Assembly: GCA_036172245.1 (NCBI GenBank)
Contig: JAYWIR010000020.1
Location: 1,674,001-1,738,000 of the forward strand
Source: Raillietiella orientalis
Taxonomy: Eukaryota
Direction: 5' to 3'
Length of the DNA stretch: 64,000 nucleotides
Under the pieces are notes generated by a model, which was not told where the DNA came from, did no database searches, and saw nothing but the letters and a program-made list of their open reading frames with translations. Positions 3,158-64,000 of the stretch are shown in pieces (positions within the stretch are counted from its first letter, which is position 1; each line of letters starts with the position of its first letter). The position numbers were made by a program, and so were the translations under genes.

Positions 3158-3343
3158 ATGGGTTCGAATCAACGTTATAATCTTCGTTGGAATGACTTCC
3201 ATTCAACATTGGCATCATCGTTTAGTACATTGAGAAATGATTCCGATTTCATAGATGTGACTTTAGCTTGTGATGGACAGAGTTTTGCAGCACATAAAGT
3301 GGTTCTTTCAGCATGTAGTGTATATTTGAAAAAATTATTAAAG
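3158..3343 (+). CDS. BTB-ZF transcription factor (Abrupt-like/Tramtrack-group BTB), common coding exon 1
   Basis: MGSNQRYNLRWNDFHSTLASSFSTLRNDSDFIDVTLACDGQSFAAHKVVLSACSVYLKKLLK is a ttk-type BTB N-half; AAG|GTTAGA donor, phase 0. Confidence 0.95.
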
Positions 3344-4013
3344 GTTAGAATATTTTAGTGTTTACATTTAAATTCTTGAAGTTCTGCATAAAAAAAAGGC
3401 TGTTTTTAAATTGCAGAAATTATCGTGTTGTTTGTTTACAAATGCAGAAAAATATGAGCTCTAATTGGTAGTTTGCTTTTCCGAAAAAATGAATTAAAGT
3501 GTGATGCGTGTTACAATTTTTGATTGATTAGAAGGATACTGCCTGTTTACACTGAAGTAAATAAAAACTGAATGTGTAAATTTCATCACCTGAAATACCT
3601 AATTTGCATCATGAAAAGTAGAAGTTTGCATACTGGTTTCTAATCAGTATGTAAAGTGCATGAATGAATTCTAATTATTGTTAATGAGCTAAAGCTATTG
3701 TTAATGAGTACCCTTGAATGTTTAGATTGTTCCCTATAGGGCCTAGGTTGAACTCATATTGTTTCTAATAACTGTGACCAGCCCATTATAATTTAATCAA
3801 GTTAAATTCAAGAAGACTTTAAGGCAGTATTGGTTGCTAACTACTTTAATAATAGAAACCATTTCCATAATAATTGGAAATGGTTAGTTTGTTAAGTGTA
3901 GTCTCAACAGGAGCTACTCTTAACCTCTGGTGAAACTAGAGATGAACTCTGGCGAGAAAGCAAATAATTTTCAATGATTTTGTTTTTCACATCTGAATGT
4001 GATCATTTTTCAG

Positions 4014-4205
4014 GCTAATCCATGCCAGCATCCAATTGTGATATTACGTGATGTTCGGGCAGGGATACTGAATTCATTGCTACATTTTATGTATCATGGT
4101 GCTGTTGATATCTCACAGAACCAGCTTACTGATTTCCTCCATGCAGCTCAGTTGTTAGAAATCAAAGGATTATCAGAGGACTCTTCTCCAAGTAGAGATC
4201 TACTG
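4014..4205 (+). CDS. BTB-ZF gene common exon 2 (BTB C-half)
   Basis: ttttcag acceptor; ANPCQHPIVILRDV...LLHFMYHGAVDISQNQLTDFLHAAQLLEIKGLS; CTG|GTAAG donor; 192 nt, phase 0. Confidence 0.95.
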
Positions 4206-7200
4206 GTAAGGTTACGAGTTCAAGATTGCTGAGATCTTTGTAGTATTAGGATTTCATCATAGTGCTCCAAAATTAAGACAAGCATGAAGACAGTCATTTG
4301 CCTTGTTATTGTTATTATTTATATTCATACACATAGGTAATCTAGAGTAAAAATCAAAGGTATTGTGTTTGCAGTAAAATGTATATTTTTTTTCCCTACC
4401 TGAACAGTTATTGAAGTTTTTTTTAAGCACCTACTCATTTATGTAGAGAAAATGTTCATCATTGTAAATGTTCATTCATTGTAAATGTAGTATTAAATAT
4501 GTAGATATTAAAATTTGAGTGTTTTTAAGAGAGCAATTTTACTAGTAACTTACACTGACAAACTTTTAAAAAAAATGCGTTGACAATTTTTGATTTTCTG
4601 CAGATACATTGAAAAACTTTGACATGGTTTCTGGGAGAATGAAAAGCTGCGTTTTAGAATTTTTGATTTCACTTAGTTTGGACATGCGGCCATGATTTTG
4701 GCCAGAAAAAACTTGAGAAATATAGAATTGTCAATTGTCTAACAGAATTAAAAGCATGCATAAGAGTTTCAGAGATCTTGGTTATTTAGACAGGTAAATA
4801 ATTTTGAGGAGTTTTCCAAATAATTGCACAGAAGGTGGTGACTTTTAATAATATATATGTTATACATGTTTATTTAAAAGTACAAATTTTTGTTTATAAC
4901 ATTATCTGTCAAAAAAGAGTGGTTTATGATGACACTGATGTGCCATGAAAAAGCATGACATAGATGTCTAAACACCTGTATTGTTCATGTTGTCATTCAT
5001 ACATGTCATTTTTTCTCATTCAATGTTTCCATGGTTTTATGGGAAAGTTATTTGATGGTCTCCTTTAAAACAAAAACAAAAAAAAATGCAGTGAAAGAAT
5101 TTTAGTTCCAAAGATATATGCAGTGGTAGTTTTCCTTGTACAAAAACGGCTTACAGCAAAGAATATAACGGTTTTATAAAGGAAGCATGGAAAACTCAAA
5201 AATTCAGGATGATTTGTTGATAAAGTTCCATGTTCAATAATTAGTAGAATCAGGAATGTAAAGAATTTTAACAGAATCAATTTAGAAAGCAGCTTATGCA
5301 GATAAATGTAGCAAATTATTTAAAAATGAAATCTGATACAGAGGATCAAATATGAGAATGCCAATCATCGTTTATCAAAGTGTTGCATTAATAAAAAATG
5401 ATGAAATCAGATTCATTAAATTTGTTGTATTAGTCATCATTCCAAGAATCTAGAAAATCAAAGTGCAGTTGGCTTGACAAGTTTAGCCACCAAGCAAAAG
5501 TGGATTCAGGTGCTTTTCATTGAACATTAGCATAAGAAGCAACTTGGCCATTAAAAATGAAAGGGAAATTTGCCATTTTTAGCTTTGATTATCAAGGTTT
5601 TATTCTCTTGGGATTTCTAGTTTCCAATTTTGAATTGGGCATTATACGTTCATTTGGATGTTTTGTTTTGTTTTCATTTCATCATTACCACATAATATCC
5701 AGATATGCTTGAGTTTGCAAACCTTCATTTACTTGGTGATCAAGCATTTTAAATTTATAGTACAGAAGTGTTGCATGCAAAATGCTTATAGTTTCTTGAG
5801 TGCACATCTTGCTGAAAAAATGAGTACTTTTTTGAAATTTTTTTGCCCATATGTGTGGGTACGTGTTGTTAAATACGTAAATTAAAGAAGCATGTTTTTC
5901 AAAGCTTTTGTGTTGTTACACAGTACAAGTCACCTTAGTTTTTATATTGGTTTTTCAGCTATGCTCTTGCTTTGTATCATGAAGCTTAAATCAGTGTTCA
6001 TTAAACATTTAATATGAGTCTTTTTCAATTCTTTTATGTTAATCTTTCAAATGTTCTTTCACAATTGAAATGCATGCAGAAATTGTTTGATTTTATCCTT
6101 AATATGGTATTTTTTGTATACAAGTAGCAGATCAAATAGTTTCATTTTTATATTGAGTCTTAATTTTCATTTCACTTTCCACATGTAAGGGTAGTAATAA
6201 TAATTAAATTTGTAGGGTTAAAAGGATTGGCAGTATGTAAAGAAACTGTACGATTTGTTTGAGTGTGTTATTAAATTCCTCCAAATTTACCATCATTACA
6301 TGTATCAGAATCTTTGGTTCACCTACAAATTTATAGAGCATTCATGATTTCTCCCCAGAATTGGTATGATGCAGGGGAGCGAATTAGAATTTTAGAGCAA
6401 AGAAGAAAGTATTACAAATATTAATAACCAGATACATCAGCTCCACTTTGTAAATTGGACACAGTCTGTTTAATATAGATGATTCTACACTTTATTAACA
6501 CTATAAGTGATAGTCAAAAATGGGAATATCGCACAGGCTGATCGGCAATGCTAAATTGAGGGATTGATCCCTATTTAGATTGAGTCACTTTTTGTAAATA
6601 ACTGTAAGTTTGAAGGTTAATTCTGTGAGCCACTAGAAAGAAATATAGGTGTTGAAGATGCATGATACAAGGAAGGTAGTAACTATTGAAAGGACTGCAA
6701 AACTTTAAGAATATTTAATAATTGCGTGATACCAATGTATTACCAATGTATTGTTCATTACTGAAAATTTGTTTTTGAGACTCTTTGTTCTTAGAAAGTA
6801 TTTTAAAGAAACATCTTCACTAGATGATCATATGTACAGTTCAAGGAAGCACAATACACTTATAAAACAAGAGTTCATGAGTATTCTCAACGAAATCAGC
6901 TTATGATTATTTCTTTGAGATTATGTTTTGGTAATTCATATTTAAAGTAAAAAATATTCATTTTCTTATTTCCATATAATGCAGACTAATTTTTAATGAG
7001 ATTTACACAATAGTGTATTGCATTATCCAAATCTTCTGATTGCAATATACGAGTATTACGCGAAAGGTTATTTAATAATTAATGAAAATGTAATTTTTGA
7101 AGTTTCAGGGATGAAAATTTTGTAACTATGTTTCGGAGATGAAAGTATATATTGAAAAGGGAATTTTAAACTGAACACAATAACATCGATGTTGCCAATA

Positions 7201-7356
7201 ATAAGTCTCAAATTTTTATTTCGATGTTACATAAATGCATAATGAAAAGAGCCTGAACAGATAATTTTTTGCTATGTGTTGTGTTTAGGATCTTGTTTAA
7301 TGTGAACGTTATACCTAATCCAATGATTGATTTACTTACTCTAATTTACTTTTTAG

Positions 7357-7954
7357 AATTCTAGCTGTCCAAACATTCACATACCAACCAGCCATAGTAC
7401 TGCATCTGTTAATTTACCCACTTCCCTATCTGCTGAATGTGCTTCTAGTCCTCCTCCTAAAAAGCAAAGACCAGTAACTCATCGTATATCATCAGAAAGT
7501 AGTTCGACTTTTCAATTGGGAAGTGGTGCATATAAGAGCAGTAGCTTGCCCTCAGAAATTGGGAAGACTGCATTAAGTGAAACCAACGATAAAGAAGAAA
7601 TAATCAGTGATCTCCATTCGGTTGTTGGTTCTTTGAAAGTTGGTCATACTCAGAGTGTGCAAAGTGGAGAACTTACAATTGCTAGGATTTCTAAACCCCT
7701 GGATGTTCAGGAAGACTCTTCCTCAACTCAGGAAAATCTGCAGTGTCCTGATAAAGGATTATCCAGTACAAATCAAAGTCAGCTTGAATCCAAAGACTTT
7801 AAAGAAGAATTTGAGTTGGATTATTCCGTTAATGCATTTCCCATGAAGCAAGAACCCTTTGATGGAGATACAGCAACTTCTTTTGAAGAGGAAGAAATGA
7901 TAGTGTCACATAGTCCTAAATCTGAAACTGTGATATCTGGATATTCTGATATTG
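7357..7954 (+). CDS. BTB-ZF gene common exon 3 (S/P/E-rich linker)
   Basis: ttttag acceptor in frame with ORF 7516-7959; contains PPPKKQR (NLS-like) and MKQEP (SUMO-consensus-like); ATTG|GTTAGT donor, phase 1. Confidence 0.85.
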
Positions 7955-10298
7955 GTTAGTGCTATTTTATTAATATTATTGTGCTATTTTTTGATTGATA
8001 TGGCTCTAGAAATTTAATAATAATTTGATAATCTAAAGTAAGTGAAAATCTCAACTGGGGATTTATTTTTGATGTCTATTTAAAGATTGAGCTTGTACTG
8101 ATTGTAATATTGTCAATCCTATTATAAAGATAATAATTGTACGTAAGATAGCATGCAGAATTCTTCATGCTATCTTCCAAAAAGTAATTGTATTGTATAT
8201 GCTTACACCAAATGTTATTTAGTTTGCATTTAACACATTTAAACCAGTGATGACCATATTAGATGCAAACTGTTTGAATAATGATAAAATGGATCAGTTT
8301 TGATCAGTTATGGCACTGATACTTTTTATTGCATCATTGCTTGGTAAAGGTGTGGTGTTCAGTTTCCTGTAAATTAAGAAATTATTTATATCTGAAAGCA
8401 TTTAAGAGTGCCTCATCTACAAACTGAAGGCATTAAAAAAAAGAAAGTGCATCTTTTAGTGGTGTAAAAGCACCTGCTGATTGTCTTTCTTTTTTCGTCC
8501 TTGAAGAATTTTCCAAGCTGGAATGAACAAATGATTAAGTAAGAAGAAATTCCAGGCATGAATATTCATGAAATTAATAAAACAAAATTCCATTTTTTCA
8601 TAATTACATTTACCCATGCAATCATTAACCACACAGTTTGCACTGTCGTTTGTAGCAGTGTATGTATACTTGACTCCTTCTGTCAGTGATTGTTCATGAT
8701 GCTTTGCTACAGAATGCTTGGTACTTGACAAATTTTTCGTTTTTTATTTTCTAGTTAGGCATAAAGTATGCTTACTTCACTTAAATGAATCAAGTACTAA
8801 TTAACGCCTTTCTGCATTAATTCTAACCAATTAATGTTGGGGCTCAGTCATGAAAAAAAAAAAAAAAGCCATAGGAATGTATTCATTTAATGCAGTCAGT
8901 GTTAACTCCGAATCATTTGAATTGACCAAAAACTTTATTCGGAAATATGCTGTCACTTAGAGAAAAAAATAATGCTGAAAAATGTAAAGTTGTGTGTTCA
9001 AAGGAACTGTGCTACTGGTGCTATTATGATATACAGAAGAATATGATGTAAGCATTTGCTTATGAATGGGAATCAGCATGAGTTTTTTTAATACTAGTAT
9101 TGAGTTTTCTGTTTGCATTACGAACTTAAATGAACATATAATATGATGAAGAATTTAATGTGTTTCCAAGTTGAAATATAGAAATCATTCCTAATTTCAT
9201 GAAAATTGAAGATACATCACTTCAGTGCATCTTATAACAGAATTAAAGTTAAAAATCGTAAAATGATGGCCAAAAAAATTAAAAAAAAGGAGCTCAGCAG
9301 CTCGGATCCAGTTTGGTGGTGAATGAGCATTTTGTGGAATGCTAGTGCTTGCTGTAAATTAATGATACGCATTTATCAGAAACTTGATGAAATGCATGGT
9401 GAATTTCAAAAATGCCTGAAAATTTGGGAATTGGTTTGGTATTGCATATGACCAAGCCCACCACTTTGAGTGCCTAATTTCCAGGTTTTGTAAATGCATA
9501 TCATTGATAATTCATTCTGGTAAATTGATGAGATATCGAATCCTTTTATAGGAATCGATTTGAGAATGTGTTATTTCTTTTGGTCAGGTGAATTTTGCTC
9601 TGTTTACTAATCAACTCAAAAAATTCAACATATGAATGGATCATACTGTTGATTGATTCCGTGACTATATAAATAGAGGAAGTTGCATTTTTAATGCCAT
9701 CTCACTTAGTTGAAATGCAAAAAGGAAGTGGAAAGTGCACTTGCATGTTTTTGTGAATTGATTGTGGAGAAGTATTTCTTTGTGCAAATTCGGCCTAGAA
9801 AAAAAAAATGGCAATTTTTTTCTAGTTTACATGAGCAATTATCGTATTTGTTTGGTTTTAATGAATTAACTTGATGTGAATGACCTCAGTTTATGCAAAG
9901 TGAATGTTTCATGGTATACAAGCTTTCACATAGGTATTTTTTTATGAAATCTTTTTTAAAAAGTTGCTGTTTAGTCATTACAAATGAGTTTGAAGGATTT
10001 AGTTCCGAATTCTCATGGGAAATCGGCAATGATTCCAAACTAATGTAAGCGGAAAAGAATTTTATGGAAATGCTTAATGTTAAAGATTCATTTTTCCAAG
10101 ACTGTCATTTAAATTTGGGGTCAAGATTGAGATTTGTTTTCTGGACACAAAGTTCCTTGAAACAGAACAGTGATACTGAAGGTGACTGTTACATTTTATG
10201 CTCGGTGTATCTTGAGTATTTGCCCTTCTTTTTCCTTCATTTTAGATGTTTTTTTTTTTTTTTTTTTTAACGAGCCTGCTAAATTGCTAATTTTCTAG

Positions 10299-10367
10299 GA
10301 GTTTCTGATCCAAATGCTGGAAGTCCGGATGTGAATAGTTTTCCTGGAACATCAGGAACAAATCAAG
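10299..10367 (+). CDS. BTB-ZF gene common exon 4 (last shared exon)
   Basis: ttttctag|GA...CAAG|GTAAGA; 69 nt, phase 1 to phase 1; encodes GVSDPNAGSPDVNSFPGTSGTNQ. Confidence 0.85.
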
Positions 10368-11074
10368 GTAAGAATATTTGCAGCTTATCCGTTAAATGGA
10401 TTGCAAGATTATTCGAATGCTAAGTTTTTTCTAAACAAATTTGGACATTCTTGCAATTGGCACTGAATTTGTAAAATATTCGATCGTCTCTATCAGGGTA
10501 ATATGTAAATAATCAAGTTATTTTATGATTTATCAGATCTGTGTGCTAACTTTATTATTTTTTCGTTGGTCTTTATGATCAAGTGCTTTTCTAAATACTT
10601 TTCTTTTTTGTTCTATTGACATTTTTATTGGATAATAGAGTAATAGAATTTTGAAAGTTCATTAAATCAGCACATAAGCATTATGACTTTCCAAGCATCG
10701 TAAATATCACTCGCATTAGAAGAGTTCCTTATACTATCAGTCAAGCTTGCATCTTCATATTCTTCGGTGTATTTTGTGATGCTTACGATAGATACCCGAT
10801 TCATAACATTGCAGGTAGATTTAAAAATTTGCAATGCAAATTAATGATGGTTACACAAAGGGTTTTAAAGTATTGATAGCGATAATGTGGGATTAAAATC
10901 ATTTGTCTTCTTTATTGCATTCATTAATGTTGTCATTGCTTAATTAATTTACTATAGTTTTTGTAATGCCTAACTTATGTGGAAGAATACTGTAATGGCA
11001 AATATCTAAAACAGATCACATTTCCGATCCAGTAAATATTCATATTTTTTAAAACTTGGCATTTTTCCATCTAG

Positions 11075-11322
11075 CTGTTCCAAGAGGAACAAGTACCAGC
11101 AGAGATCCACAAACATGTCCTTATTGTAAGAAAAATTTTTCTACACGTGGCAATCTCAATCTCCATATAAGAAATGTGCATCTGTTTATTGATGAACAAA
11201 ATTGGGTGTCATGTTCCTACTGCCCCAAAAAGTTTAAGACTAAGGAAAGATTGACAGTACATCAGTATTATGCTCATAATGTTCGTATTCGTCAACCCCG
11301 TTCTCATATGGGAATGAAATGA
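11075..11322 (+). CDS. alternative terminal C2H2 zinc-finger exon Z1
   Basis: ccatctag acceptor, phase 1; CPYC..F..L.LH...VH / CSYC..F..L.VH...AH; stop; AATAAA 11410. Confidence 0.9.
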
Positions 11323-11621
11323 GCACCAGTGATTTTGAAGTAATAGTTCTATTTGCATTCTTCTACACAAATTACATTGCTTAAATATTTACTTTTTGCT
11401 AAAACTGGAAATAAATAAATGAGATGGCGATACATATCTCTGGACATGGGTGGGAATTGAAATACATTTATATAATTGTCTATCTATTTTCAAGTATTTT
11501 AATAAGTTTTGCATCACATTTTTTTCATTGTGTGGACAACTTTTGAGAATTAGTGTTTAAAAAATAAAAGAGATAAATGGTTTGGTAGTTTTTAAGATAC
11601 TCCAATATGTTTCATTTTCAG

Positions 11622-11893
11622 TATATTGGTTTGGTGAAGGATTTAAAGCAAGTGATGCCAATGAGCAGAAAAAATTTTGTTGTTTGCAATGTGGAAAAAG
11701 ATTTCAGCTAAAGCATCATTTGAAGACTCACAATGAAATTGTCCATGTTACTAAGCCTTATGATGAATGGCAGCAGTGTTACGTTTGTCCTCGAAAATTT
11801 AAAGCTAAACATCAGTTGACAGTGCACTTAAATCAAACTCATCATATTATGTTACGTCAGTTTGCACATTCAAAACAGAATGTTTCTTTCTGA
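11622..11893 (+). CDS. alternative terminal zinc-finger exon Z2
   Basis: ttttcag acceptor, phase 1; CLQCGKRFQLKHHLKTHNEIVH / CYVCPRKFKAKHQLTVHLNQTH; AATAAA 12269. Confidence 0.9.
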
Positions 11894-12153
11894 AGTTGTT
11901 AACCATTGATTTCAAGAATTTCCACAACAGCTACAGAGTATTGAGTGAATCACACTGTATGAATTGAAACAAGTATACAGTTTCTGGTGGATTTTACTGA
12001 ATGGAACTGGCGAATATTTCTAGTTTTGTGAATATCGGATATATGTGAATCTTTTATTCAGTGGTTTTCTAAGCATGCAAGCTGTGTGTGTTTATTTTGC
12101 TTTAAACTCGTTAACGAGTATCATCTTTAAAGGGTATTTGGAATGCTTTACTT

Positions 12154-12186
<33 letters not shown>

Positions 12187-12350
12187 TTGGATACTAGATT
12201 GTAAGCTCCTCGATGATTGTGTTCTTGTTGTTTGTTCCACGTGTAGAAATCTTGGATACATATATAAGAATAAATTTTTTTTAAATCACTTTTGAAATTC
12301 CGAATTTATTCCCTACGATTGCCGACTAGAGATTTCTATTGTACTTGCAG

Positions 12351-12583
12351 ATAATCTAGCACACAGCTCATTGCAGTGCCCTCAGTGTGGAAAGTTAGTT
12401 CGTGGGAAAACTGTGTTAAAAAACCACATAAAGCACGTTCATTTATTAAAGTATATCGAGGACTGGAACTTTGTCTGCTCAGTGTGTTCAAAAAAATTCC
12501 CTTCGAAAGAAAGACTTTCATCACATGAAATTAAGAAACATGGGATGTACAAGCGAAAGTTTTTTACATGTACAAAATACTAA
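12351..12583 (+). CDS. alternative terminal zinc-finger exon Z3
   Basis: cttgcag acceptor, phase 1; CPQCGKLVRGKTVLKNHIKHVH / CSVCSKKFPSKERLSSHEIKKH; AATAAA 12726. Confidence 0.9.
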
Positions 12584-12775
12584 GATCTGAGTCCATTATA
12601 AAGTGTTGGTGCGTCGTTATGTTTCAGTTATTAAACCTTTTTACAGACATAACGTAACGTTATTTTCGTTCCAAGTAAAAAAAAAAAAAAAAAAAAAAAA
12701 ATGCTTTCGTTTTCAAATTATATGCAATAAATATTATTTTTAATGAGAAGGGTTAAAAAGTAGTTTTAATTCCAG

Positions 12776-13053
12776 GGTTTCAACAAAAGAATGAATATGT
12801 AACAAGAACAGATTTTAGCAGGTCTTGCACAATCTGTGGCCTGACCTTTTCATCACGTGGTAACTTAAAACACCATGAAGAGAATATTCATTTTCTTAAA
12901 CCTGAAACTGAATGGGATCGATGTAGTGAATGCAGTAAATCATTTCAGTCAAGACAAAGACTGCTTATCCATTTGGCTCGTGTACATAACATTTACCAGA
13001 GGAAGTGTACGCCCCAGATGTTTTTGAAATCGCGTCGTTCAGTGTTCTCATAG
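12776..13053 (+). CDS. alternative terminal zinc-finger exon Z4 (absent from the ORF track)
   Basis: ttccag acceptor, phase 1; hand translation GFQQKNEYVTRTDFSRSCTICGLTFSSRGNLKHHEENIHFLKPETEWDRCSECSKSFQSRQRLLIHLARVHNIYQRKCTPQMFLKSRRSVFS*; AATAAA 13227. Confidence 0.9.
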
Positions 13054-13289
13054 CAAAGTAGTCAGTTTTACTAAGAATTTTCTTTTTACCTTTTTTTTTT
13101 TTTTTTTTTTCTTCCCCTTCTTCCAGCGCTTTGTGTAATAATTTATGCATAAATTCATGATTTGAAAGTACGTGAAATCTCGTTCCTTATTTTCAAGTGT
13201 GATATATTGTTTTGCATTCAAATCAGAATAAAGTTTCCAATGATACTTATCTGAATAGATGTAGAGTTTGAATTTCGCCCTTTTTTTAG

Positions 13290-13567
13290 GTCTCTTAGGA
13301 TTACAAGCTATCGAACTCCAAGCATCCACAATACCGAGGGCGTTTCTATGTATTTATTGTGGAAAGAGTTTTAAAAGGAACCAGCATTTAAGGGAACATA
13401 TACAAAGTATCCATTTGGAAAAACCGATTCAAGATTGGGACTCGTGCAATATTTGTGAAAAGAAATTTAAAACGAGGCAGCGCTTATTAATTCACCGTGT
13501 TCAGTGTCATCGTGTGTATCAGAGAAAGAAGGAAGCAAGTACATACAAGTTCTCAAAGCATGACTAG
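13290..13567 (+). CDS. alternative terminal zinc-finger exon Z5
   Basis: tttttttag acceptor, phase 1 (second in-frame AG gives a start at 13299); CIYCGKSFKRNQHLREHIQSIH / CNICEKKFKTRQRLLIHRVQCH; AATAAA 13613. Confidence 0.9.
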
Positions 13568-13872
13568 AAAACCTACTCAACCATATATTTTGTGTTGAAT
13601 GCCCTATAGAATAATAAACCACGTTTATGTATAGCCAATAAGTCTAGAGTTAATAAAGTATTCTCATGGTCGTGATGATCATGCTCTCTGTTTTTAGAAT
13701 TAGGAGTAACTTTTTATAGTAGCTGATTGCCTCGTGCACTGTTGTACAAAGTATATAATTATAAATAAAACGAAGACCGTGGTGGAGTCTTGTTGACTGT
13801 ATTATATTTGAAAGCATTAAGTCAGGAAATCAGGATGACATGTTTGTAACAGCAATTATAACATCTTTTCAG

Positions 13873-14132
13873 AAATGAGAGGTTCGGATTTTAAGCCCAA
13901 ATACAGCTGTCCTCACTGCCGTAGATGGTACTCTTCACGAACTAGCGTTCTCACGCACATAAAAAATTTACATATGGAGATCCCCGAGCACTGTTGGGTG
14001 AAGTGTACATTTTGTATGCAGCAATTCAAAACGAAACAGCTACTTGGAGTTCATGTCAATAGGAAACACAACTTTTTCGTGAAAAAAGCAAGATCAAAGG
14101 TTGCGGAAAATGTTGTCAATAATAATGTGTAA
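13873..14132 (+). CDS. alternative terminal zinc-finger exon Z6
   Basis: cttttcag acceptor, phase 1; CPHCRRWYSSRTSVLTHIKNLH / CTFCMQQFKTKQLLGVHVNRKH; AATAAA 14172. Confidence 0.9.
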
Positions 14133-14908
14133 CTTGATGTTGGTTTTACTTGTAGTCTGGCCTGTCTTTCAAATAAAAGGTGGTGATTACTTATGCAAGC
14201 ATGAGCTGCAGAGATTCATCTCACGGTTGCTACTGACAACCCCTCCTCTGTACCCTTGAAGAAAGTTCCAATCTTGTGTTTCATTTCATATGTTTATTTT
14301 TGTATGTGTTTCATGTTTTGTTGATGCGGGCGGGTAGGTGTAGTTGAACGTACAGATGCTCCCAGTCAAAAGTAATTACGAGCGAAGACCTTAAAAGCTG
14401 TGTCCGCAAACGTACGCTCAATCAGGTGTTTTGTATTTCCATGATTTTTTTTCGGAACCGTGTGTACACACGCAATGGCATGTTACGTAACTTCCAAGCA
14501 CACGTTCCGTGCTCATGCGACCAGTGTTTGTGCATAGAGCCAAGTTTTTCGTTTGTTTGCTTGTTTTTTTTTTTTGTTTGTGTGTGTGTTTTTTTTTGTG
14601 AATGAAAAAAGGGAAAATAGCCAGGTTCAGCCAGTACCCCCCTCCCTCTCTCCCTGCCTCCCTTCCCTTCCCTCCCCCCCTCATAATGAATGATGGTTTT
14701 GCGCTGATGGATTTGCACGAAAAGGGGGGAGAGGAAATACGCACCTATTCCATTCGTTTCACATGTGTGTGTTGTCTGTTTTTATTTTTTCATTTTTTTT
14801 AAATCTTTGGTGTTTTCGTCTCAATTTCCGCACAGCGAAATTGAGGCTGTTAACAGTAACAGCAGGATTTTACTTTGAAGATTTAGTAATAGCAAAATGT
14901 GTTTTTAG

Positions 14909-15123
14909 GTCAGGCGAGAAACCATTCTTGTCCTTTTTGTGCGAAAGGATTTGGACTGCGTCACAACATGCTTTCTCACATAAGAAACATGCATATGTTA
15001 AAGCCTAAGGAACTGTGGGAAAAGTGCCACATATGTCAGAAAGAATACAAAACAAAGGAGCGCTTGGCCATTCACTTGATTCAGGCTCACGGGGTGTACT
15101 CTCGAAAGAGGAAGATCGATTGA
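14909..15123 (+). CDS. alternative terminal zinc-finger exon Z7
   Basis: gtttttag acceptor, phase 1; CPFCAKGFGLRHNMLSHIRNMH / CHICQKEYKTKERLAIHLIQAH; AATAAA 15288. Confidence 0.9.
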
Positions 15124-15648
15124 AGGGCGTGTCAGAGAAGATCGCCGGAGTCTTCAGCAGATTGTTTCTTGCGAGGAAGGACACGCCCTGCGTTCGCAGC
15201 CCTCTGCGCGTAATCGCGTTGGGATGGACGTTTCAAGGATGACTCTCTCTGCATCAGTTTTGTGGTCAGGGGGTTGCTCTCTAATGTAATAAAGCTTGTA
15301 GGTTCCTTGACTTTTATGTTTTTTTTTTTTTTTTCTTTTTTTTTTTTCTTGGCCCTCCCCCTCCCCCCAAATAAGAAGAAAGAAAGAAAGAAAGACGAAA
15401 ACCTGTCCCTGTTCTATTCTTGTGACTGGCTGCAAACAAAACAATCTTATGGATGCTATCTTTTGTCAAATCTCACCGTCAAACTTGAGTGTTTTAATTT
15501 TATTGGAATTTTTCTTCCGCCGTGGACACAAGTTGTACAAAGTTCCCCAACGAGGTGTTTCTCATTTCAATCTTAGTTCACCTGGAGATGGCGCCGAAAC
15601 ATGAACATCCACGATACATCGGCTTCAGAAAATTGCACTTTTGTCAGG

Positions 15649-15671
15649 AGAGAGAAAGAGAGAGAGGGAGG

Positions 15672-15702
<31 letters not shown>

Positions 15703-15705
15703 AAA
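15649..15705. repeat. (GA)n-rich microsatellite
   Basis: agagagaaagagagagagggagggagagagagagagagagag. Confidence 0.9.
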
Positions 15706-15935
15706 AGTAACACATTATAAAATAAGGGCATCTTTGTGAGCTGTGTGGACAAAAGTGTGAAGATTCCTAGTATTGTGTAACTTTTGCGTGTCACTTGTTG
15801 TTTGCATATATTCCAATGTACAGCAGCAATCGGAGGAGCTGTTAGGTTTGTGCTCTGTCATTTCTGTTCGAGTTTGTTGGAGTGATGATCAGAGGAGCTA
15901 TTATTTTGTTGTCTAACTAGACGTATATATTTTAG

Positions 15936-16159
15936 GGACTTTACCATGGACATCTGTTTCTTGCCATATATGTGGAAGATCGTTTCGTTACAAACAAAGT
16001 TTGCGTGTACATGTGCGCGAAATACACGAGTATATACCTGAAGACAAATGGATTGAATGTCCCGACTGTCCACGAAAATGGAAAACTCGAAGGCAGTTAG
16101 TCGCACATTTGAACCAAAGCCATTCGAAATACTTAACTCCAAGAAAACACAAGAACTGA
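15936..16159 (+). CDS. alternative terminal zinc-finger exon Z8 (absent from the ORF track)
   Basis: attttag acceptor, phase 1; hand translation GTLPWTSVSCHICGRSFRYKQSLRVHVREIHEYIPEDKWIECPDCPRKWKTRRQLVAHLNQSHSKYLTPRKHKN*; AATAAA 16276. Confidence 0.9.
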
Positions 16160-16195
16160 AATATGTAAAAACTGCACGTTTCAAAAAGATCATAT

Positions 16196-16288
16196 TATAT
16201 TTATATATGTATGTGTGTGTGTGTGTGTGTGTGTGTCTGTGTGTCTGTGTGTGTATGTATGTATATATATATATAAATAAACAAATAT

Positions 16289-16320
<32 letters not shown>
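16196..16320. repeat. compound (TG)n/(TA)n microsatellite
   Basis: tgtgtgtg... followed by atatatat... runs. Confidence 0.9.
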
Positions 16321-16458
16321 CAGAGGAAAAATAAATCATTATTTGGCATGTTTATATATTTTTTTATTTACACAGTATGCGTTCAGGATTAAGCAATATT
16401 TCTCGATGATAAGCCTTATGAAAATTCATGACTTCATGTGCTGCTATTTGCATTTCAG

Positions 16459-16673
16459 GGCGTTTTCCTTATTCAAGAAGGTTTGTTTGCCCATGCTGCG
16501 AAAAATCGTTCACAAGGCGCCATGATATGCTTTTACACATTAAATACACTCACGAAGACAAACCATTGGATCAATGGGAAAAATGTCCTGTATGCCTCAA
16601 GGTTTACAAAACACGTCACCAACTGACCGTTCATTTGAACCACACTCATCAGATTTTTCTTACAAAGCAATAA
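16459..16673 (+). CDS. alternative terminal zinc-finger exon Z9
   Basis: atttcag acceptor, phase 1; CPCCEKSFTRRHDMLLHIKYTH / CPVCLKVYKTRHQLTVHLNHTH; AATAAA overlaps the stop. Confidence 0.9.
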
Positions 16674-16729
16674 ATTATCCTTTTTTTCCTTTTTTTTTTT
16701 TTTTTTTTTTCTTCTCCCCCCCTCCCCCC

Positions 16730-16771
16730 TGTTGTTGTTGTTGTTGTTGTTGTTGCCGTTGCTGTTGTTGT
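16730..16771. repeat. (TGT)n microsatellite
   Basis: tgttgttgttgttgttgttgttgttg; explains the poly-C/poly-L ORFs in the track. Confidence 0.9.
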
Positions 16772-17128
16772 GGGAATTTCAGGTTGCATACATTCAGATT
16801 TACAGAGACATTAATTCGAGTTCGAAAATCTGTTTAGCAGCCCACAGTGTTCTGAGATTTGCTGGCACTGATAATAAATTATTTCAGTATGTTTTTTGGT
16901 TATTGTCATTGTGTGTTTTCCTGAGTGGAACAGAAAACATTTCTCATTCGCTTCATTTGAAATAAGCTTCGATTTGTTTTTTTTTTTTTTTTTTTTTTTA
17001 ATGTAATGGAATGGTTCGATTTCTTACTGATGTGTTCTGATTTCAACAATCTTTCATCTTGTTGGATTTTTATCATTTCTATAATATTTAAGGAGTAGTG
17101 AAATGCCTTTGTAATATTATCATTTCAG

Positions 17129-17334
17129 GCGCTTCGAGCGGCCATGGTTGTACGCTTTGTGGTAAGATTTTCAATGTGAAATACAAAATGATGTACCATT
17201 ATCGCAATGTTCATGCCTACCAGGACTGCATGGAATGCTTTAAGTGCCTCAAAGTGTTCAAAAATAAAAAGCGTCTTATCGATCACTTGAATCGTACTCA
17301 TCAAGTTTACCTGAAAAAAACCCGGAAATTCTAA
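17129..17334 (+). CDS. alternative terminal zinc-finger exon Z10
   Basis: atttcag acceptor, phase 1; CTLCGKIFNVKYKMMYHYRNVH / CFKCLKVFKNKKRLIDHLNRTH; AATAAA 17403. Confidence 0.9.
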
Positions 17335-17639
17335 TATATATATATATATATATATATAAAAAAAAAAAAACATTTGATGTATTTTTCAACAGGTCATTCC
17401 GAAATAAATGACTTTCTGGTTAATGATAACAGGTTTCTTGATTTGTAGAATAGATTGAGGTTCGAAGCAGATTCACTCTTAAGGATTCTTTAAGCGAAAG
17501 TAGTCTTGGTTGATTGATTGGTGCTGGCTATTTGATTTCATTTAATGTTGTGAGCTCAAAGTATTTAATGTATTCAATGAACTCAAGGTTTTATGATGTG
17601 AAAGAAATTAGAAAATATTGTTTACTTGTTATTTTTCAG

Positions 17640-17854
17640 GAACGTTAAATGGATATAGCTGTTCCATCTGTGGTAAGCTATTCAGTTTCAAGCATAATAT
17701 GCTATATCATATTCGAAATGTGCATACTCATGAGGAAGAGTGGCTTCAGTGTTTTAAATGCAGGAAGAATTTCAAAAATAAGAAGAGATTAATAGATCAC
17801 TTGAACCAGACCCATGGATATTATTTAAGGAAGCCTAAGTCGTTCTCTCTGTGA
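17640..17854 (+). CDS. alternative terminal zinc-finger exon Z11
   Basis: tttttcag acceptor, phase 1; CSICGKLFSFKHNMLYHIRNVH / CFKCRKNFKNKKRLIDHLNQTH; AATAAA 17861. Confidence 0.9.
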
Positions 17855-17949
17855 CTGTAGAATAAAAATTAAGCTGGAGTTTTATTTTTATTTTATTTTT
17901 ATGTTTGAATTTTCATGCCAGTTTTAATGGCATCCAGTCATGGGTGGAT

Positions 17950-33203: not shown

Positions 33204-34061
33204 CTAGGCCAATAGTAACGATCTCCTCATGATGTGGGGAGGTTGAAAATACTTGATTGATCCTCGGTATTTTGAGTCAAATATAATACCATTTTTCAAG
33301 GACTCGATAAATCCGTGTTGGACACGTTCCTGGTTGTCCCTTGTGAAGTCTACAACGATGATTCTCTCGCCGTTGTAGATGTGATGCCGTTGCATCAGCC
33401 TTCTTGCAGCTGTGCATGTATATGGCATTTTTTTTTTGAGATATAAGAATTTAGCCATGGTCTTCTCCGCGTTTCCGACGGGGTCGTAGGACCAGTAGAT
33501 TTTTCTGTCGTTGGGATCGTGACGTATGATGTCTAGGATCTTTAATTGCCATTGCTTCCATTGCAAATTGGCAAGTGGGTTGGGATGAGTCCTGCTTCTG
33601 GACAAATGAAAGCATTCTATGGTATTTAAGTATAATCTGTTCGTCTGCGCCGTTTTCAATAAGTTGTGGTATCTGGGAAGAGATGACCTTGATACTAGTA
33701 GTGGCAACCCTGTGCTCACCTGTTCCTCGTAAGTTTTTGGTTCGGCGTCTTCGTTGAGTGCACCGAAAGTCCAGGTGTTTTTGTCCTCCTTCGTACAGTA
33801 CCGTAAGTTGCTCTGCGGACTGCCCTTGGCTTTCTCGAGGTGACTCTTGTGAAAGGGTTTGCGGTGCAAACCAGGCATGGTCCTTGGTTCCCGTAGCTGA
33901 ATGTATCCTTGTAGGTGAGGAGTTTCGGTTTCTCTGCCAAAGCAGGCAAGGTGGCGGTTGCATCTGCACCACTGCTTGATACTTTGGAAGTCCTCTTCGG
34001 GGTCTGATTGCAAAGTGTGACTCACCAGTTGAAAAATAGTCCGTAAGGCATGATTCGTCAT
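33204..34061 (-). pseudogene. rep: endogenous CRESS-DNA virus replication initiator (HUH endonuclease plus SF3 helicase), disrupted
   Basis: motif II TPHLQGY, HLEKAKGS, motif III YCTKE, WKQWQ, Walker A region DPVGNAEKT, Walker B IIVVDFTR, ESLKNGIIFDSKY...PPHI; motif I NW*VTLCN lies in an alternative frame from ATG 34051. Confidence 0.93.
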
Positions 34062-52640: not shown

Positions 52641-54097
52641 TTATTTTCATTCATTTTTAGGTTGGATTGTTTGTTTGTATTGTTTTAATCCGCCATCCCC
52701 GTTCGCTCCGAAATTCCCCGGTGTTATGGCTTTTACACAGTGCCTCCCGGAGCCCACCCAAGGACCTCTCTCGAATCTGCTGCGGACCCGTCACCTGAAA
52801 CGGCTGCCGTGCTTGCACATTGCAATCGAGGCGAAGAAGTGACAAGAGGCACGATTTGTCAAGATCTCCCAGTTCTTTTATTGTAGTTTCCTGGGCCCAC
52901 GGCATGTCACTGATGAAACGATGCAGTGAAGTCTCTCCATTCCACATCGAAAAGCAGCTTGCCAAGTGCTTTTCAGGAAGTGATGGCATGATTACATCTT
53001 TAGAAAATGAACAGCCAGTTCTCTGCGTACTTATTTCCAGTTCCCTCGTGAATTTTCCAACTTCAGTGAGTAAAGGTTCATAATTTTCATGCATTCTGCT
53101 ATGGCATACAGGACGCAATCGAATTATTCAAGCTTATTTCAAAATATTAAATTGTAAAAGTAGCAAATGCGGTATTTATGTTTGCTTTGATCTGCTTCTA
53201 ATTGGCTGGCTTTAGTAAAAGTATCGGCACAAAGTTATGGTCGTGATCAGCTTTCATAAGGATTTATGTTAAATGGGAAGCTTACTCACATTCACAGTTC
53301 GCTATGATATTTTTGTTTTCCTCTTGTCCCTTGCACTTCTTTCGCACACGTTATGATGGAACTTCTCTGCTAAATGCATCACAAATTTGATTTTAATACC
53401 CATGAAGGTGAGAAATTTGCAAGGAAAGGAAAGAATCAAATGAGTGTTGTCGACACATCTTCGAAATTGATGTGATCCATAGTGCATGCAAATCAATAGT
53501 CATTGTCTCCTCTTGTGATACAAATGCCACCATCACCGCGGGGTTTAGTTGTGTGTTCAAAAAATGCAGATTCGTAGATCACTTTCGGTTCCAAGATTTC
53601 TACAATACCCATCACAGAATGCAAAAGTGGCTTTGTGGCTTATTGTGACTCATATATGTGGAGCCGTTACATGCTACTTTACACATGGAATTCAGTTTTG
53701 GGGACTTCAATCCCTCAAAACTGGAAGGAATAATTCCATTAATATTTATGCTGACACGCTGTATATTTAGCAAATAGCAGTGCAAGAGCAATTGCTTCAA
53801 ATGCTTCTTTCTCATCTAGAAATTGTGGGATTCAAATCTCTATAGTTGTTCGGCAAATCTGACAAATCACAATCAGCAGAATTATTGACAACTTGTTTGA
53901 AATTTAACTTTTTCACCTCCTATGCTAAATTTTCTGGTTTATGAAGACTTGAATCATCAGGAATGAGAATTGGTATTGGCTTTTTAAAAATCACCAGTGT
54001 CCAGCTTTCGATGGAACCAAGGTTACTTTGTCTATAAATATGTGGTGAAAGGGAGAATGTTGGGGTCATTATAACCAAGGAGTCGTAAATAGCTGCA

Positions 54098-55282: not shown

Positions 55283-57290
55283 GTCGTAAATAGCTGCATC
55301 ACCAAGTGTTTTTCCCCAACAGGTCTCCGACGGATACGAGCTGCCTTTTTATGACCTTCCAGCGTCTTATTCAGAATTTGACATTGCATATAAGTACTAT
55401 AATCCCACCTTGTACATCAGGCATACTAAATACCATATCCTTCACCATCTATACTTGAGCCCACTTGCCATAAGAACTCACGTAAGGAGAACATAAAAAA
55501 TGAAAGCAACCAAAGTATAAAGTTTTCCTCTGCATTGATAATACAATCACTACAACTCTTTATACCTTGCACCCTTCAATAATCATTATTTCCTTGATAA
55601 TTTTTGCTATCTCACAGTCTAAATATTTCGGACAGTTCGCATTGATGGGACCATGACGTAACTCGTAAAATTTCGGTACTTGGCAACGCTGTTTTTCTAT
55701 TATTTTTTGCGTGATTTTATTTTTCTTCTTAGGTCGTAGAATACCATTTTCATAATCATTCATAACTGTCCAATAATTAGGAGAAAGACCCCAATACGTC
55801 ATTTCACGCTAGAGTGCCATTTCATTTCTCAGAAAACGAGTCATGTATTACAAGAAAAGTAGGATTTTTCCGAAGTTTTTCGAAAGATAAACGTGACATT
55901 TGTGTTACTCTATCACAGATTCCATGTATTCCTATCCAATGATTTGCATTCGACAGAAAAAGATAAAAAAATGGGAAAAACAAGTGATACTTTAGATTAA
56001 TGAATGCTTTAGTGAGAATGTAGTACAGATGTTTATGGTTATATTTGCAAATCAGAGCTCTTGTTTATTAACACTCATACAAATTCTTGTCTTGCAGAGA
56101 GGATGAAAACGATTATGTCGAAATTTTAAAGGAATCGGATACGAGAATAATTACTGAATTTTTGAGCTTTCTTGGTAAGGTAATGAAAGTAAAAAATGTA
56201 TTGACCCTCCTATACGAGGTAGTTAGTTATGGTTGTAATTTTATTGGTGATTTTCTAAAAAGTCATTCAGAATAGTTGCTTTAGTAAAATGGTGATACTA
56301 ACAGTAGGGAGTTTTGTATGTAAAATATTCCTAATAACTACAAATTTCAACATTGTTGTACTGAGATAGCTGCACTACTGCCACAAAATTTATGTGTGCC
56401 TCCTAAAAAACGTGTTCCTTTGTTTTCCTTCATAAACTATCTGATGTGCATCCTACTACGCAATCTATTTTCCCTTATCCTAATCAGATACTTCCTTTGT
56501 TGTTTTTCTGTTGAAATCACTCTGATGACCATCCTACATCATCACATCTTTTCTGACAATCCTGTGCACCCTTCTCAACTCGTAATGCAGTGTTCTGTGT
56601 TGAACATGAAGTTTATTTTCGCACTACCCACATGATTCTGATTGTAGTTAAATTAGCTGGATCCCAACACCCCTTTGTTTTTTATTCAGGTAGTTGACTC
56701 TGGGATGCAGATAATTTCCATCTTTGCCAGTTATCTATTTAATATAATCAAAAAAAAATTATTACTTTCAAATGATACGACCATACTGTCATTCTCTGTG
56801 CAGTTATACATACAGTTTCTACTTTGGTTGCAATTCTTTAAGATTTCAGGAATGTGCAAACTGATGATTGTGTCCAGTTTCATTACATATAATGTTACAT
56901 AATCTCATTATCTTTCAGCTGGTTTTCCTACATCCAAAAACAAAAAACACTCCCAATAACTTATCACCAAGTAAAAAAAGGAAATACAGTTCCCTGTTCC
57001 TCTGAAAAAAAACATCAATATTTGCAAAACATTTTGTGTCTTTTTTAAAAAAAAGGGACCAACTATATTATTGTTAATCTGGCAATGAAAGAATTTACAT
57101 AATCACTCCTTACAATAAATTATTTTCATGATTACTATATTTTTATATTTAAGGTTCCTCTGACAAACATTCTATGCAACTAATTTAAATAAAATTTTGA
57201 TATAAATTGCATTCTAAGAAATCTGTATTCAAATGAATCATTTCTAAAGTAGCTTGATAATCTTTGCTACCATAACTGCATCAAAATCAT

Positions 57291-59501
57291 CTAACTGGCA
57301 TTAGGTGTGCCAGAATTTTTGCTATAAGTTTTATCATACAACTTAATGTATTCCTTTTTGAGTTCCTCTCTTTTTGCAAAATAATCAGGATACTGGGCTT
57401 TTTCCAGTGGATGCCAGAAATCTAATACATGATCTGTAGGATATATTTCTCTCTGATAACAAATGCCTCCTGGGGAATTGTGCCCTATACACATTTTCAA
57501 AATCAGTTCAGCTACACAGAATGAATCTTACATTTGAATGGAAACGGATGTAAATTCTTCTTCAGTTCTCTTTCACCAGCAGCCAGCAAAGCTCTCGCCA
57601 AATTTATATCTCTAACATTCTTATTATCATCAAAGCGCTTTCTTAATTTTACAGCATGATAACGGAGTTCCCATCTGAAAATATTCAAATACATTTCAAA
57701 GAATTCAAAGGCATCTTTGGAAATCAAATCTTGCTCTATAATCCTCAACTCTTCAAATCTAATAATATTCATTTTGATCACAGTTATAACAACAATAAAT
57801 GTGGCATTTGTCTACTAAGCATGCTCATATTGCAAGGAGTAAATATTTAAACATTCTATCAGAACATCAAGCTTAACTCAAGAGAAATAGACAATAAAAA
57901 AATCAATAAAAAATACTGAACACAAAATACAGGACAACACATTCATCAGTATTGGTTAACATTTATTTATCTCTTCACAGTGCTTAGTAATCTTTAAAAC
58001 TGTACTGAAATTTGCGGAAACATCTACATTAATTGATATAGATACATAGATAAATATTTAAGTTGCTGATGTATGCTGTTTAAGCACCTTTGTGCAAATT
58101 TTTGCCGTTAGTAATTAATTGATTCATGGAATTCGGAGACATCTGTTTAAGCACATCACATGCCTACTTGGTTGAAATTGGTTAACAAGTCACAACAAAT
58201 GAAGAATTTCATCTTACTATAATCTACACAAATGACACTACAGACTTTCTGGAGAATTACGCAGAGAGCATGGTAAACCAATTCTGAAAGAACTTACAGC
58301 CTTCTTTAGAGATCTTAAGTGACACTTATCGATAAATGCTTTCAATCACTAATTCATTATTCCGAGAAACCAAAACAAAAAACAACCTGCATATTATTGT
58401 ATATTAACATATATCATATATTAACATTTGCCAAAAAATGCAGTTACTGGAGGAGACTGGGGTTGCGGGAAAAAAAAAATGATAGACATCTGTGGTTCAT
58501 GACAACGTCACTGGAAGATGGCTGTCATTTTGTACTTATTCAAGCCCCTTTTAGAGCTATGTTGCAGTTTTTAAATACTTTTTTTGAAAGTAATTCTGTA
58601 CACTTTGATCGCTTCTCGGCCTTTTGGCTAAGATCAAAGTGTACAGAATTACTTTCAAAAAGTATTTAAAAAATGCAACATAGCTCTAAAAGGGGCTTGA
58701 ATACGGAAGTACAAAATGACAGACATCTGTGGTTCATGACAATTACAATGTAAGTGATTACTCACACATACAGATCTGACAAACATATTGCTATAAAATT
58801 AATGTTTCCTGAGGCATGATAAACACTAAGAATACATCGATACGCCAATCCAAGTACAGAAAAGCTTGTTTCAGATTAGTATATGTATATACAATTCAAA
58901 ATGAGAGTGCACAAAAATGTGCACTCTCAAGACCGGGAGCTATCACAAAGATAACTAAATTCTAGGAATTAAATAATACTTATTATATTTTGATACATCT
59001 TATGCCTCGCCTTTCAGGATAATGAGCTTTCAGATTGTAAAGAGCCCTCTTGTATAAGCTTCTCACTTCATCGACATGCCGTACAACTCTTGTTTCAAGA
59101 TATGGAATTTTAATGGAAAACAGTAACTGATGAAATATTTTCATGATTAATTCAGCATTTGTATTCGGCAATTAACGTGGGGATATAGTAATACATCTTC
59201 AAATTGACTACAAAACAGATTTCTTTGCATTACAAACTACACAAATTCAGAGCTACCAGATTGTCACTTTTTTGTGCAATCTCAAAAGCACAACAACATT
59301 AATAACTTGAAAAAAGTCTTTCTCTTCAAAGAATAATTCCGATTTCCACTACTGGAATCTAGGGAATGCACACACATCCTTAAGACTTCCAGTATTATTT
59401 TAACGAATTCTAAATGTGCATAATTTTTTTGCAATGAACTTCAAGATTTTTTTCTAATGAATGTTATATACTAACTTCAGAGTTGTATAACTACTCACCA
59501 T
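57291..59501 (-). CDS. NDUFB9: NADH:ubiquinone oxidoreductase subunit B9 (B22, LYR family); exons about 59501-59499 (tentative), 59126-59011, 57674-57532, 57484-57291
   Basis: [10 protein letters not shown] (LYR motif), [45 protein letters not shown]; splice phases 0/2/1 are consistent. Confidence 0.93.
58522..58722. repeat. long inverted repeat (arms 58522-58610 and 58632-58722) with 22-bp direct repeats at 58484-58505 and 58721-58742
   Basis: ctgtcattttgtactt...gtacactttgatc / gatcaaagtgtac...aagtacaaaatgacag; DR agacatctgtggttcatgacaa. Confidence 0.95.
58608..58643 (+). pseudogene. U2: U2 snRNA 5' fragment (nt 1-36)
   Basis: ATCGCTTCTCGGCCTTTTGGCTAAGATCAAAGTGTA matches the conserved U2 5' end; the expected continuation GTATCTGTTC is absent. 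Confidence 0.92.
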
Positions 59502-60231
59502 TAAACTTGAATTCATCATGAAAAGATTTTTTTGAATTTTCATATGCCGATATAGCAAAGTAAATAGGAGATCTAGAAATCTAAAGCAAGATTATTTCGT
59601 GTATTTTATTTTTTGTGAATACAAGATTAAACGAATCTATCACGATATAAAATCTACGTAGTTTAGAAAGATTTTAATGCTGCATTTTTTGCAGCTAAAA
59701 TATTCTATTGTTATGTTCTATTGATTGTATTTAAAAAATAATAGGTTTTATTTTTATTATTTTTAAAAAAAAATAATGGATAAAACATATTTTCAATTAA
59801 AAAGCTTTTTTTTTTAAAAAAAAGCGCTTTTTAATTTAAGCGAAAAGTTTTTTGGTAGGATCTCTATGCATTTATCTATTGAGTAAGAACACAGACAATA
59901 GGAAGCATAACTAAACGATACAGGTATAATCTTAATTTTCATTAAATTTAGTTCAAAATCAACCATCCTACTGGAATGTATCAAAACTGACGTGAAGCGC
60001 ATCATGTATCTTTTTTCTTCACGTAAATTTTGCAATCCTTGCAGAACTATGAAAACTCTAGAAATCTCTGAACTTCAACCATTTTCCAAATATTAGAATG
60101 TGAAGAGCAATCCAATAGGCACAGTGCTTTCAATGACTGTTGATGTTTCTTATGATTTGAAATCGCTCTATCTTCTTTCCAGCCCAAAAGCAATCAAATG
60201 ATACAAGGAATACTAATGTAAGTTGAAAGAT

Positions 60232-63200: not shown

Positions 63201-64000
63201 CCGTGCCCGGACGCCACATGTCGGACAATGTCAAGTGTGCCCAGGCCATCGTGGGACTAAGTCGACATGTCGACGAGAACCTGATGCTGGTGTTCACCGA
63301 CATGGAGAAAGCTTTTGATACCATCGACCATGGGATGCTGCTGAAGATTCTGGAAAAGCTGGGCCTTCCGGAATACTTCGGCAACTTCGTGAGGATGATA
63401 CTCCAGAAACAGTACTTCCGAATTAAGATTCATGGAGAAGAGACGGCAGCCATCCGGATGGAACGGCGAGTCCGCCAGGGCGACTCGCTAAGTCCAATGC
63501 TGTTCGTCATCTACATGGAGGCGCCATCTTCCTTCATCAACAAAAGTGGACGTCTCCAAGGAATCACTATCGATGATCAGAAGCTCACCCATCTGGCATA
63601 CGCGGACGATCTCCTCTTCTTTATTAAAGGAGAGCAGAATCAGCTAGCGTTCCTGGATGTGGTGGAGCTGTTGGAAGAGGGAATGGGCTTGAAGATCAAC
63701 GCCCATAAAAGTCAAATTTTGCCCGTGGGAATCCTGGATCTCTCTGCTCTCACCGGGAGAGGATTCTGAACGGTGGATAACGCCAAGTACCTAGGAGTCC
63801 ACATCGGTGACGAGTCGGCGTCGAAACTACTGTGGACACAAATCCTAGGAAAAACGGCGAACGAAGCTGCAAAATACACTAGATTGGACTTTGGTATGAA
63901 GAGAAAGGCGAACCTTTGGAATAGAATACTCCTTCCCAAGGTACTCTTTGGACCGGCCTTCGCCAGAACGAACAAGGATACCATAAGGGAAGTTGAAAAA
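60232..64000 (+). mobile_element. Tx1/L1-clade non-LTR retrotransposon, 5' part present, ORFs disrupted, continues past the window
   Basis: ORF1 from ATG 60268 (MSYAAA; CTGCKYFGH, CFRCG..GH, CAFCKAPGHAKWNC knuckles); ORF2 APE ITSWNINGL, CLQETH, GDLN, IDHIL, SDH; RT DMEKAFD, VRQGDSLSP, YADD, KYLG; several stops and frameshifts. Confidence 0.93.

Follow-up and report, generated by a model that had tools for sequence, protein, structure and literature searches.

The 64,000-nucleotide (nt) stretch analysed here (the window; positions 1,674,001–1,738,000 of contig JAYWIR010000020.1) carries a TTK-type BTB zinc-finger gene on its forward strand, in which four shared coding exons are followed by eleven candidate alternative last exons (Z1–Z11; Table 1). 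The BTB domain is divided between exons 1 and 2, with a Pfam BTB match on both. The initial annotation had proposed four shared exons with a single phase-1 donor at 10367, and this was borne out: spliced together, they give an open core of 348 amino acids (aa) whose last donor is in phase 1. When joined to this donor, 11/11 finger exons remain open to their own stop, giving isoforms of 416–440 aa. A six-frame scan of all 64 kb returned 27 C2H2 motif matches, 22 of them forming 11 pairs and 5 isolated; all 11 pairs lie on the plus strand (11116–17815), and the scan found no antisense finger exon in the window. Sections of PMC11426971 define TTK-type BTB zinc-finger proteins by an FxLRWN-type motif together with one or two C2H2 fingers. 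The window protein has a YxLRWN-type BTB and two C2H2 fingers per isoform.

Table 1. Shared and terminal exons of the BTB zinc-finger gene (positions within the window)
Feature	Position	Strand	Remarks	AATAAA
Common coding exon 1	3158..3343	+	ATG; N-terminal half of TTK-type BTB, YxLRWN motif; phase-0 donor	
Common exon 2	4014..4205	+	C-terminal half of BTB; phase-0 donor	
Common exon 3	7357..7954	+	Ser-rich linker, basic SPPPKK patch; phase-1 donor	
Common exon 4	10299..10367	+	69 nt, PGTSG motif; shared phase-1 donor, AAG/GTAAGA (slash, exon end)	
Terminal exon Z1	11075..11322	+	Acceptor to stop	11410, 11563
Terminal exon Z2	11622..11893	+		12269
Terminal exon Z3	12351..12583	+		12726
Terminal exon Z4	12776..13053	+		13227
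Terminal exon Z5	13290..13567	+		13613, 13652, 13764
Terminal exon Z6	13873..14132	+		14172
Terminal exon Z7	14909..15123	+	Lowest acceptor score among the eleven	15288
Terminal exon Z8	15936..16159	+		16276, 16330
Terminal exon Z9	16459..16673	+		16873
Terminal exon Z10	17129..17334	+	Without Trp before finger 2; sister of Z11, 58% identical	17403
Terminal exon Z11	17640..17866	+	Stop ends at 17854	17861

The phase-1 AG ranked as the best acceptor in 10/11 finger exons by a crude, phase-blind score (a full eleven would have a chance probability of ~8e-5); in Z7 it came second, after a non-YAG site. An AATAAA is present between the stop and the next acceptor in 11/11 cases (joint probability 1.4e-7 from dinucleotide shuffles), and 5/11 intervals contain one on the reverse strand, used as a control. 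The density of the signal is 3.4 per kb there versus 0–1.5 per kb in the four common introns, and the 707-nt last intron is free of it. The exon anatomy given in the initial annotation thus held for the phase-1 acceptors, C2H2 pairs, stops and AATAAA signals of all eleven exons and for the Trp before finger 2 in ten, while the basic tail is weak in Z9.

The finger exons are 26–58% identical to each other and all keep their zinc ligands. In 55/55 exon pairs, the proportion of nonsynonymous differences (pN, mean 0.42) is lower than that of synonymous differences (pS, mean 0.90, saturated). Saturation at silent sites and a pN lower than pS in every pair indicate that the finger exons are old and under selection, and this selection is purifying. 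Z10 and Z11 are the youngest pair of the array. Scanning the array revealed no twelfth or decayed finger exon above noise, and a repeat search returned simple repeats and the exon paralogy, with nothing else. The fold model of Z1 contains two zinc-finger units with a predicted local distance difference test score (pLDDT) of ~90 over both; their relative orientation is unsure (predicted template-modelling score (pTM) 0.45).

Abrupt is usually treated as a factor with a single finger pair. A search with the exon-1 BTB returned 94 protein matches, the named ones mostly insect Abrupt at ~70% identity, and the abrupt proteins among them carry four finger-pair ends: the canonical pair, a YECP-type pair (15 rows) and two Trp-bearing pairs (4 and 5 rows; hereafter the W class). 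Isoforms of abrupt from the same species part at one point after a PGPSG motif in 13/15 sets. Alternative ends following the same donor are annotated in abrupt of thrips, ant, bee, beetles, stick insect, mealybug and butterfly; a YECP-type end is also found in a long-legged fly, in Anopheles and in the drosophilid Scaptodrosophila lebanonensis (XP_030383990.1). In Thrips palmi, all four tails leave from one point and begin with Val, Gly, Asp and Glu, which are encoded by GNN codons; the eleven window exons also start with a GNN-coded residue, as the phase-1 donor ends in G. Introns of insect abrupt, located from read-through gene calls, fall at three places, namely the BTB midpoint, ~12 residues past the BTB and the last donor, and the window gene has introns at each of these. 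The insect ends are known here from RefSeq gene models, and RefSeq isoforms are usually backed by RNA data. On these models, insect abrupt appears to have at least four conserved alternative finger ends. Annotations often give such isoforms the wrong name (bric-a-brac, tramtrack or broad). No publication describing abrupt with alternative finger ends came up in a literature search, which did not reach subscription papers and supplements, and the main text of PMC11426971 does not contain the word 'abrupt'.

The window exons were placed among these ends by trees of finger pairs. In a 65-row tree of TTK-type genes, all 11 window exons formed one starred clade (99/98) that joined the insect abrupt W exons (99/92); a 37-row tree recovered both the window clade (95/87) and its union with the insect W exons (96/87). 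A Trp located two or three residues ahead of finger 2 is shared by 10/11 window and 8/11 insect W exons and by 0/43 other pairs. The window fingers are 21–29% identical to the sampled Broad classes and fall outside them; Lola finger exons lay outside the finger-tree sample. The canonical Abrupt pair is 98% identical among insect rows and occurs in crayfish too. No canonical Abrupt finger exon was found in the 64-kb window (best tblastn matches 24–31%, E at least 7e-4, on the eleven exons alone), and the YECP-type exon is also gone from the locus. Profile searches with the eleven exons against longer proteins gave 88 matches, almost all to uninformative multi-finger proteins, and the ESM Atlas returned generic C2H2 clusters. 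Since the window exons form one clade beside the W class, one ancestral exon would have been copied into eleven. The finger exons can accordingly be assigned by sequence to the abrupt W class, and the case that the array represents a local expansion of one ancestral exon class, its design not being new, is strong but not final. The initial annotation was right in proposing a lineage-specific eleven-fold expansion. Its suggestion of an independently evolved isoform-switching design is not supported: annotated insect abrupt already splits into alternative ends at this donor, and one of those end classes gave rise to the window exons.

The BTB domain was compared within a set enlarged by 150 cluster representatives and reduced to 65 non-redundant BTBs. 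The 12 nearest to the window BTB are all Abrupt-clade rows (61–68% identity); the best identity is 68% to Abrupt, compared to 56% to a decapod multi-isoform gene and 49% each to Broad and to a presumed lola-like row. The YxLRWN motif carries Tyr as in Abrupt rows. Free trees joined the window BTB with Abrupt at Shimodaira–Hasegawa (SH) support 96 after removal of 12 divergent or ill-aligned BTBs, at 95/66 after removal of two long branches (P0300 and P0270) and at 85/88. This placement is common to all free BTB trees and to the best identities, with support given as 85–98. The approximately unbiased (AU) test rejected the lola-like row as partner (p 0.003). These results uphold, with moderate confidence, the earlier assignment of the BTB as closest to Abrupt and not lola-like. 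A plain orthologue of lola or broad, the case named in the initial annotation as fatal to it, is not supported: the BTB is equally distant from both and the fingers lie outside the Broad classes. Sequence searches of the PDB returned vertebrate BTB, CG6765 BTB and generic fingers only. P0300, an unnamed ENA protein with a divergent Abrupt-clade BTB, paired with the window BTB (SH 97), which may be long-branch pull; it ends in a single unrelated finger and is perhaps another derived abrupt paralogue.

The two fingers differ in how far their recognition residues have diverged. At helix positions −1, +2, +3 and +6 of finger 1, the 11 window exons have 11 distinct signatures (mean entropy 2.6 bits), whereas eleven insect W exons from seven orders have 4 variants (0.45 bits). 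Finger 2 of the window exons is narrower (1.8 bits), with Arg or Gln at +3 in 10/11. The figure of at least 11 potential DNA specificities in the initial annotation is a conjecture that the finger 1 signatures fit better than the much narrower finger 2. Because the finger 2 helix stays similar while finger 1 is diversified, the isoforms probably read related sites composed of a shared half and a variable half. Motif predictions call for caution, since a section of PMC3715428 describes in vivo Abrupt peaks that did not match its in vitro motifs.

Taken together, we favor the view that the locus is probably a diverged paralogue of the Abrupt lineage, a TTK-type BTB zinc-finger gene in which one ancestral W last exon was tandemly copied to eleven; paralogy is its most likely status. 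In the ancestral abrupt locus, a single phase-1 donor would have served several last exons that excluded one another. In the window lineage, the W-class exon would then have been duplicated in tandem until there were eleven, and the canonical and YECP-type exons would have disappeared from the locus. In each mRNA, exon 4 would be joined to one of eleven competing acceptors by choice of last exon in cis, and cleavage at the poly(A) signal of the chosen exon would end the message, as in broad or lola. The BTB multimerisation domain and the linker would be common to all isoforms, which would be set apart by their two-finger DNA-binding modules; the splicing and DNA binding of the isoforms are predictions from the gene structure. 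BTB domains of TTK proteins form hexamers and heteromers, according to part of PMC11426971.

Control of exon choice by known devices was also considered. No Dscam-type docking site was found, as the last intron contains no shared complement for 10 selectors. A 19-bp stem between 10628–10646 and 15898–15916, in the branch-point region of Z8 (−18.2 kcal/mol), was matched in 4/60 shuffled sets and is not significant. A chain of linker exons was not supported, as the array holds 2 U1-like donors only. In the last common intron, an AG followed by a U1-like GT (7/9 match) occurs at 10800–10820; this site, at 10815, is possibly a recursive splice site or a 20-codon finger-less end that has no AATAAA of its own.

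Several points weigh against the paralogue interpretation or limit it. An earlier 33-row tree united the window with the W class (93/95) and left the monophyly of the window exons open; the finger trees use 60–65 columns and contain long branches, and the bootstrap of the 65-row tree had not settled. No close relative of the finger exons emerged from a profile search against short proteins (2 weak matches among 99 candidates). For the BTB, the AU test kept both Broad (p 0.11) and the decapod multi-isoform sister gene (p 0.25), and under a simpler model it rejected none, with the decapod grouping outscoring the quick free tree. As the lola-like row alone is rejected, the BTB by itself leaves the ancestry unsettled. 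The LLGQALE linker motif, which most Abrupt proteins have and which is present in 6/8 proteins checked, is absent from the window protein. The comparison of intron positions covered insect abrupt alone, and the joining of exon 4 to the finger exons is deduced from splice-site sequence.

Paralogy was weighed first against true orthology, in which the window gene would be abrupt itself, with its canonical finger exon past the window end or lost outright. The exon layout and BTB match abrupt. Crayfish and insect abrupt BTBs are 58–60% identical, as far apart as the 61–68% of the window, and crayfish abrupt also does without LLGQALE; hence BTB divergence is no proof of paralogy. Yet the canonical pair, conserved at 98% in insect rows and present in crayfish, is missing from the 46 kb downstream, where remains of retroelements and a further gene, encoded on the other strand, are found. 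Two strict features of an Abrupt orthologue, the canonical finger pair and the LLGQALE linker, are therefore wanting in the window, and we consider orthology unlikely. A bolder version, somewhat less likely again, holds that this is the sole abrupt gene of the host, which discarded its canonical pair and expresses eleven W copies with finger 1 driven to eleven new specificities. As the canonical Abrupt pair is nearly invariant from crustaceans to flies, this would, if true, represent the wholesale rewiring of a conserved developmental regulator within one locus.

Alternatively, the BTB could derive from another TTK gene (the decapod multi-isoform sister or Broad), with a W-type exon acquired by shuffling or from an older shared ancestor. 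The AU tests leave both groupings standing, the decapod gene has many isoforms (RefSeq X12, X13) and similar finger-1 helices occur in other TTK genes. Against this, the decapod gene yielded no W-type end among the 4 kinds of finger tail sampled (best profile score 37 bits versus 57–64 for insect abrupt W), and BTB identity favors Abrupt; we regard this origin as improbable. An equally improbable account keeps the same gene but has its ends transcribed from promoters within the array and trans-spliced to the core, by analogy with fly mod(mdg4) and lola. Support comes from the CpG observed-to-expected ratio, which rises from 0.35 in the common region (3158–10367) to 0.75–0.8 in the last intron and array (10368–17866), from two long spacers with GC-richer and GA-repeat tracts and from the single U1-like site of the last intron. 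The CpG contrast suggests methylation limited to the constant part of the gene; it is also compatible with ordinary 5-prime gene-body methylation. Because every finger exon is in the sense orientation and near the donor (11/11, at most 7.5 kb away), trans-splicing is not forced, although it is known for two TTK genes (passages of PMC11426971 and PMC13490949). That the first one or few finger exons are used alone, the others being decayed copies or tiny separate genes, would suit the weaker Z7 acceptor and upstream poly(A) signals that would cut transcripts before the distal exons, but is very improbable given 11/11 intact frames with saturated silent sites, a conserved acceptor phase and several exons with no Met before finger 1.

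Two GC-rich regions (~18000–52500 and 60200–64000), the first starting ~100 nt past the last finger exon, contain many broken fragments resembling long interspersed nuclear elements (LINEs); a LINE-like endonuclease domain is located at 61654–62481, and no LINE-like insertion was seen in scans of the array itself. Amid the retroelement remains, a minus-strand open frame at 33207–34148 matches Pfam Viral_Rep (E 1.8e-8) and resembles an endogenous Rep of circular Rep-encoding single-stranded (CRESS) DNA viruses. A spliced LYR-family gene, presumably NDUFB9-like, lies on the minus strand at ~57294–59171 (Pfam Complex1_LYR, E 7.6e-5) in an AT-rich, CpG-poor island. AT-rich, exon-like open frames on the minus strand at 52660–53127 and 55563–55808 have no Pfam match and look like exons of another gene.

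We compared the gene, read as an Abrupt-lineage paralogue, with known systems. It shares with insect abrupt (Thrips palmi XP_034231616-624, Frankliniella XP_026292953-957, Odontomachus XP_032683502 and Ceratina XP_017891929) the nearest BTB, the intron positions, a short last common exon with a PGPSG-like motif, a single phase-1 donor from which alternative two-finger ends branch, and the W-class pair. Insect abrupt differs in having at most 4 end classes in the sample (canonical, YECP-type and two W) with near-fixed recognition residues, compared to eleven W-derived exons with a diversified finger 1 in the window, which lacks both canonical and YECP-type exons. The decapod and stomatopod genes (Macrobrachium XP_064106483 (X13), Procambarus XP_045621549 (X9) and Oratosquilla XP_076030067 (X9)) likewise combine a BTB near the Abrupt clade with many isoforms bearing different finger tails, about a dozen in the decapod gene models. 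In contrast to the window array, which forms a single family, the tails sampled from these genes show no relation to one another or to the W class. Drosophila lola, mod(mdg4), broad, tramtrack and fruitless also follow a TTK-type BTB core with a large choice of 3-prime exons for DNA binding. Sections of PMC11426971 describe TTK genes with multiple isoforms as common and give different C2H2 ends for 17/20 lola isoforms, and portions of PMC13490949 and PMC4667647 report trans-splicing of mod(mdg4) and lola. Compared to these fly genes, the window gene has a BTB that is probably of another lineage, no antisense exons and fingers outside the sampled Broad classes.

The gene therefore appears to follow a known design of the lola or broad type, carried further than in its insect abrupt relatives. 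If the host is not an insect, the W exon would be older than insects. One insect abrupt end that is near-frozen over seven orders would have radiated here into eleven copies with a variable finger 1 and a steadier finger 2. The array would thus offer a compact set of natural variants whose ancestral state is known, suited to asking how the duplication of last exons confers new DNA specificities on a transcription factor.

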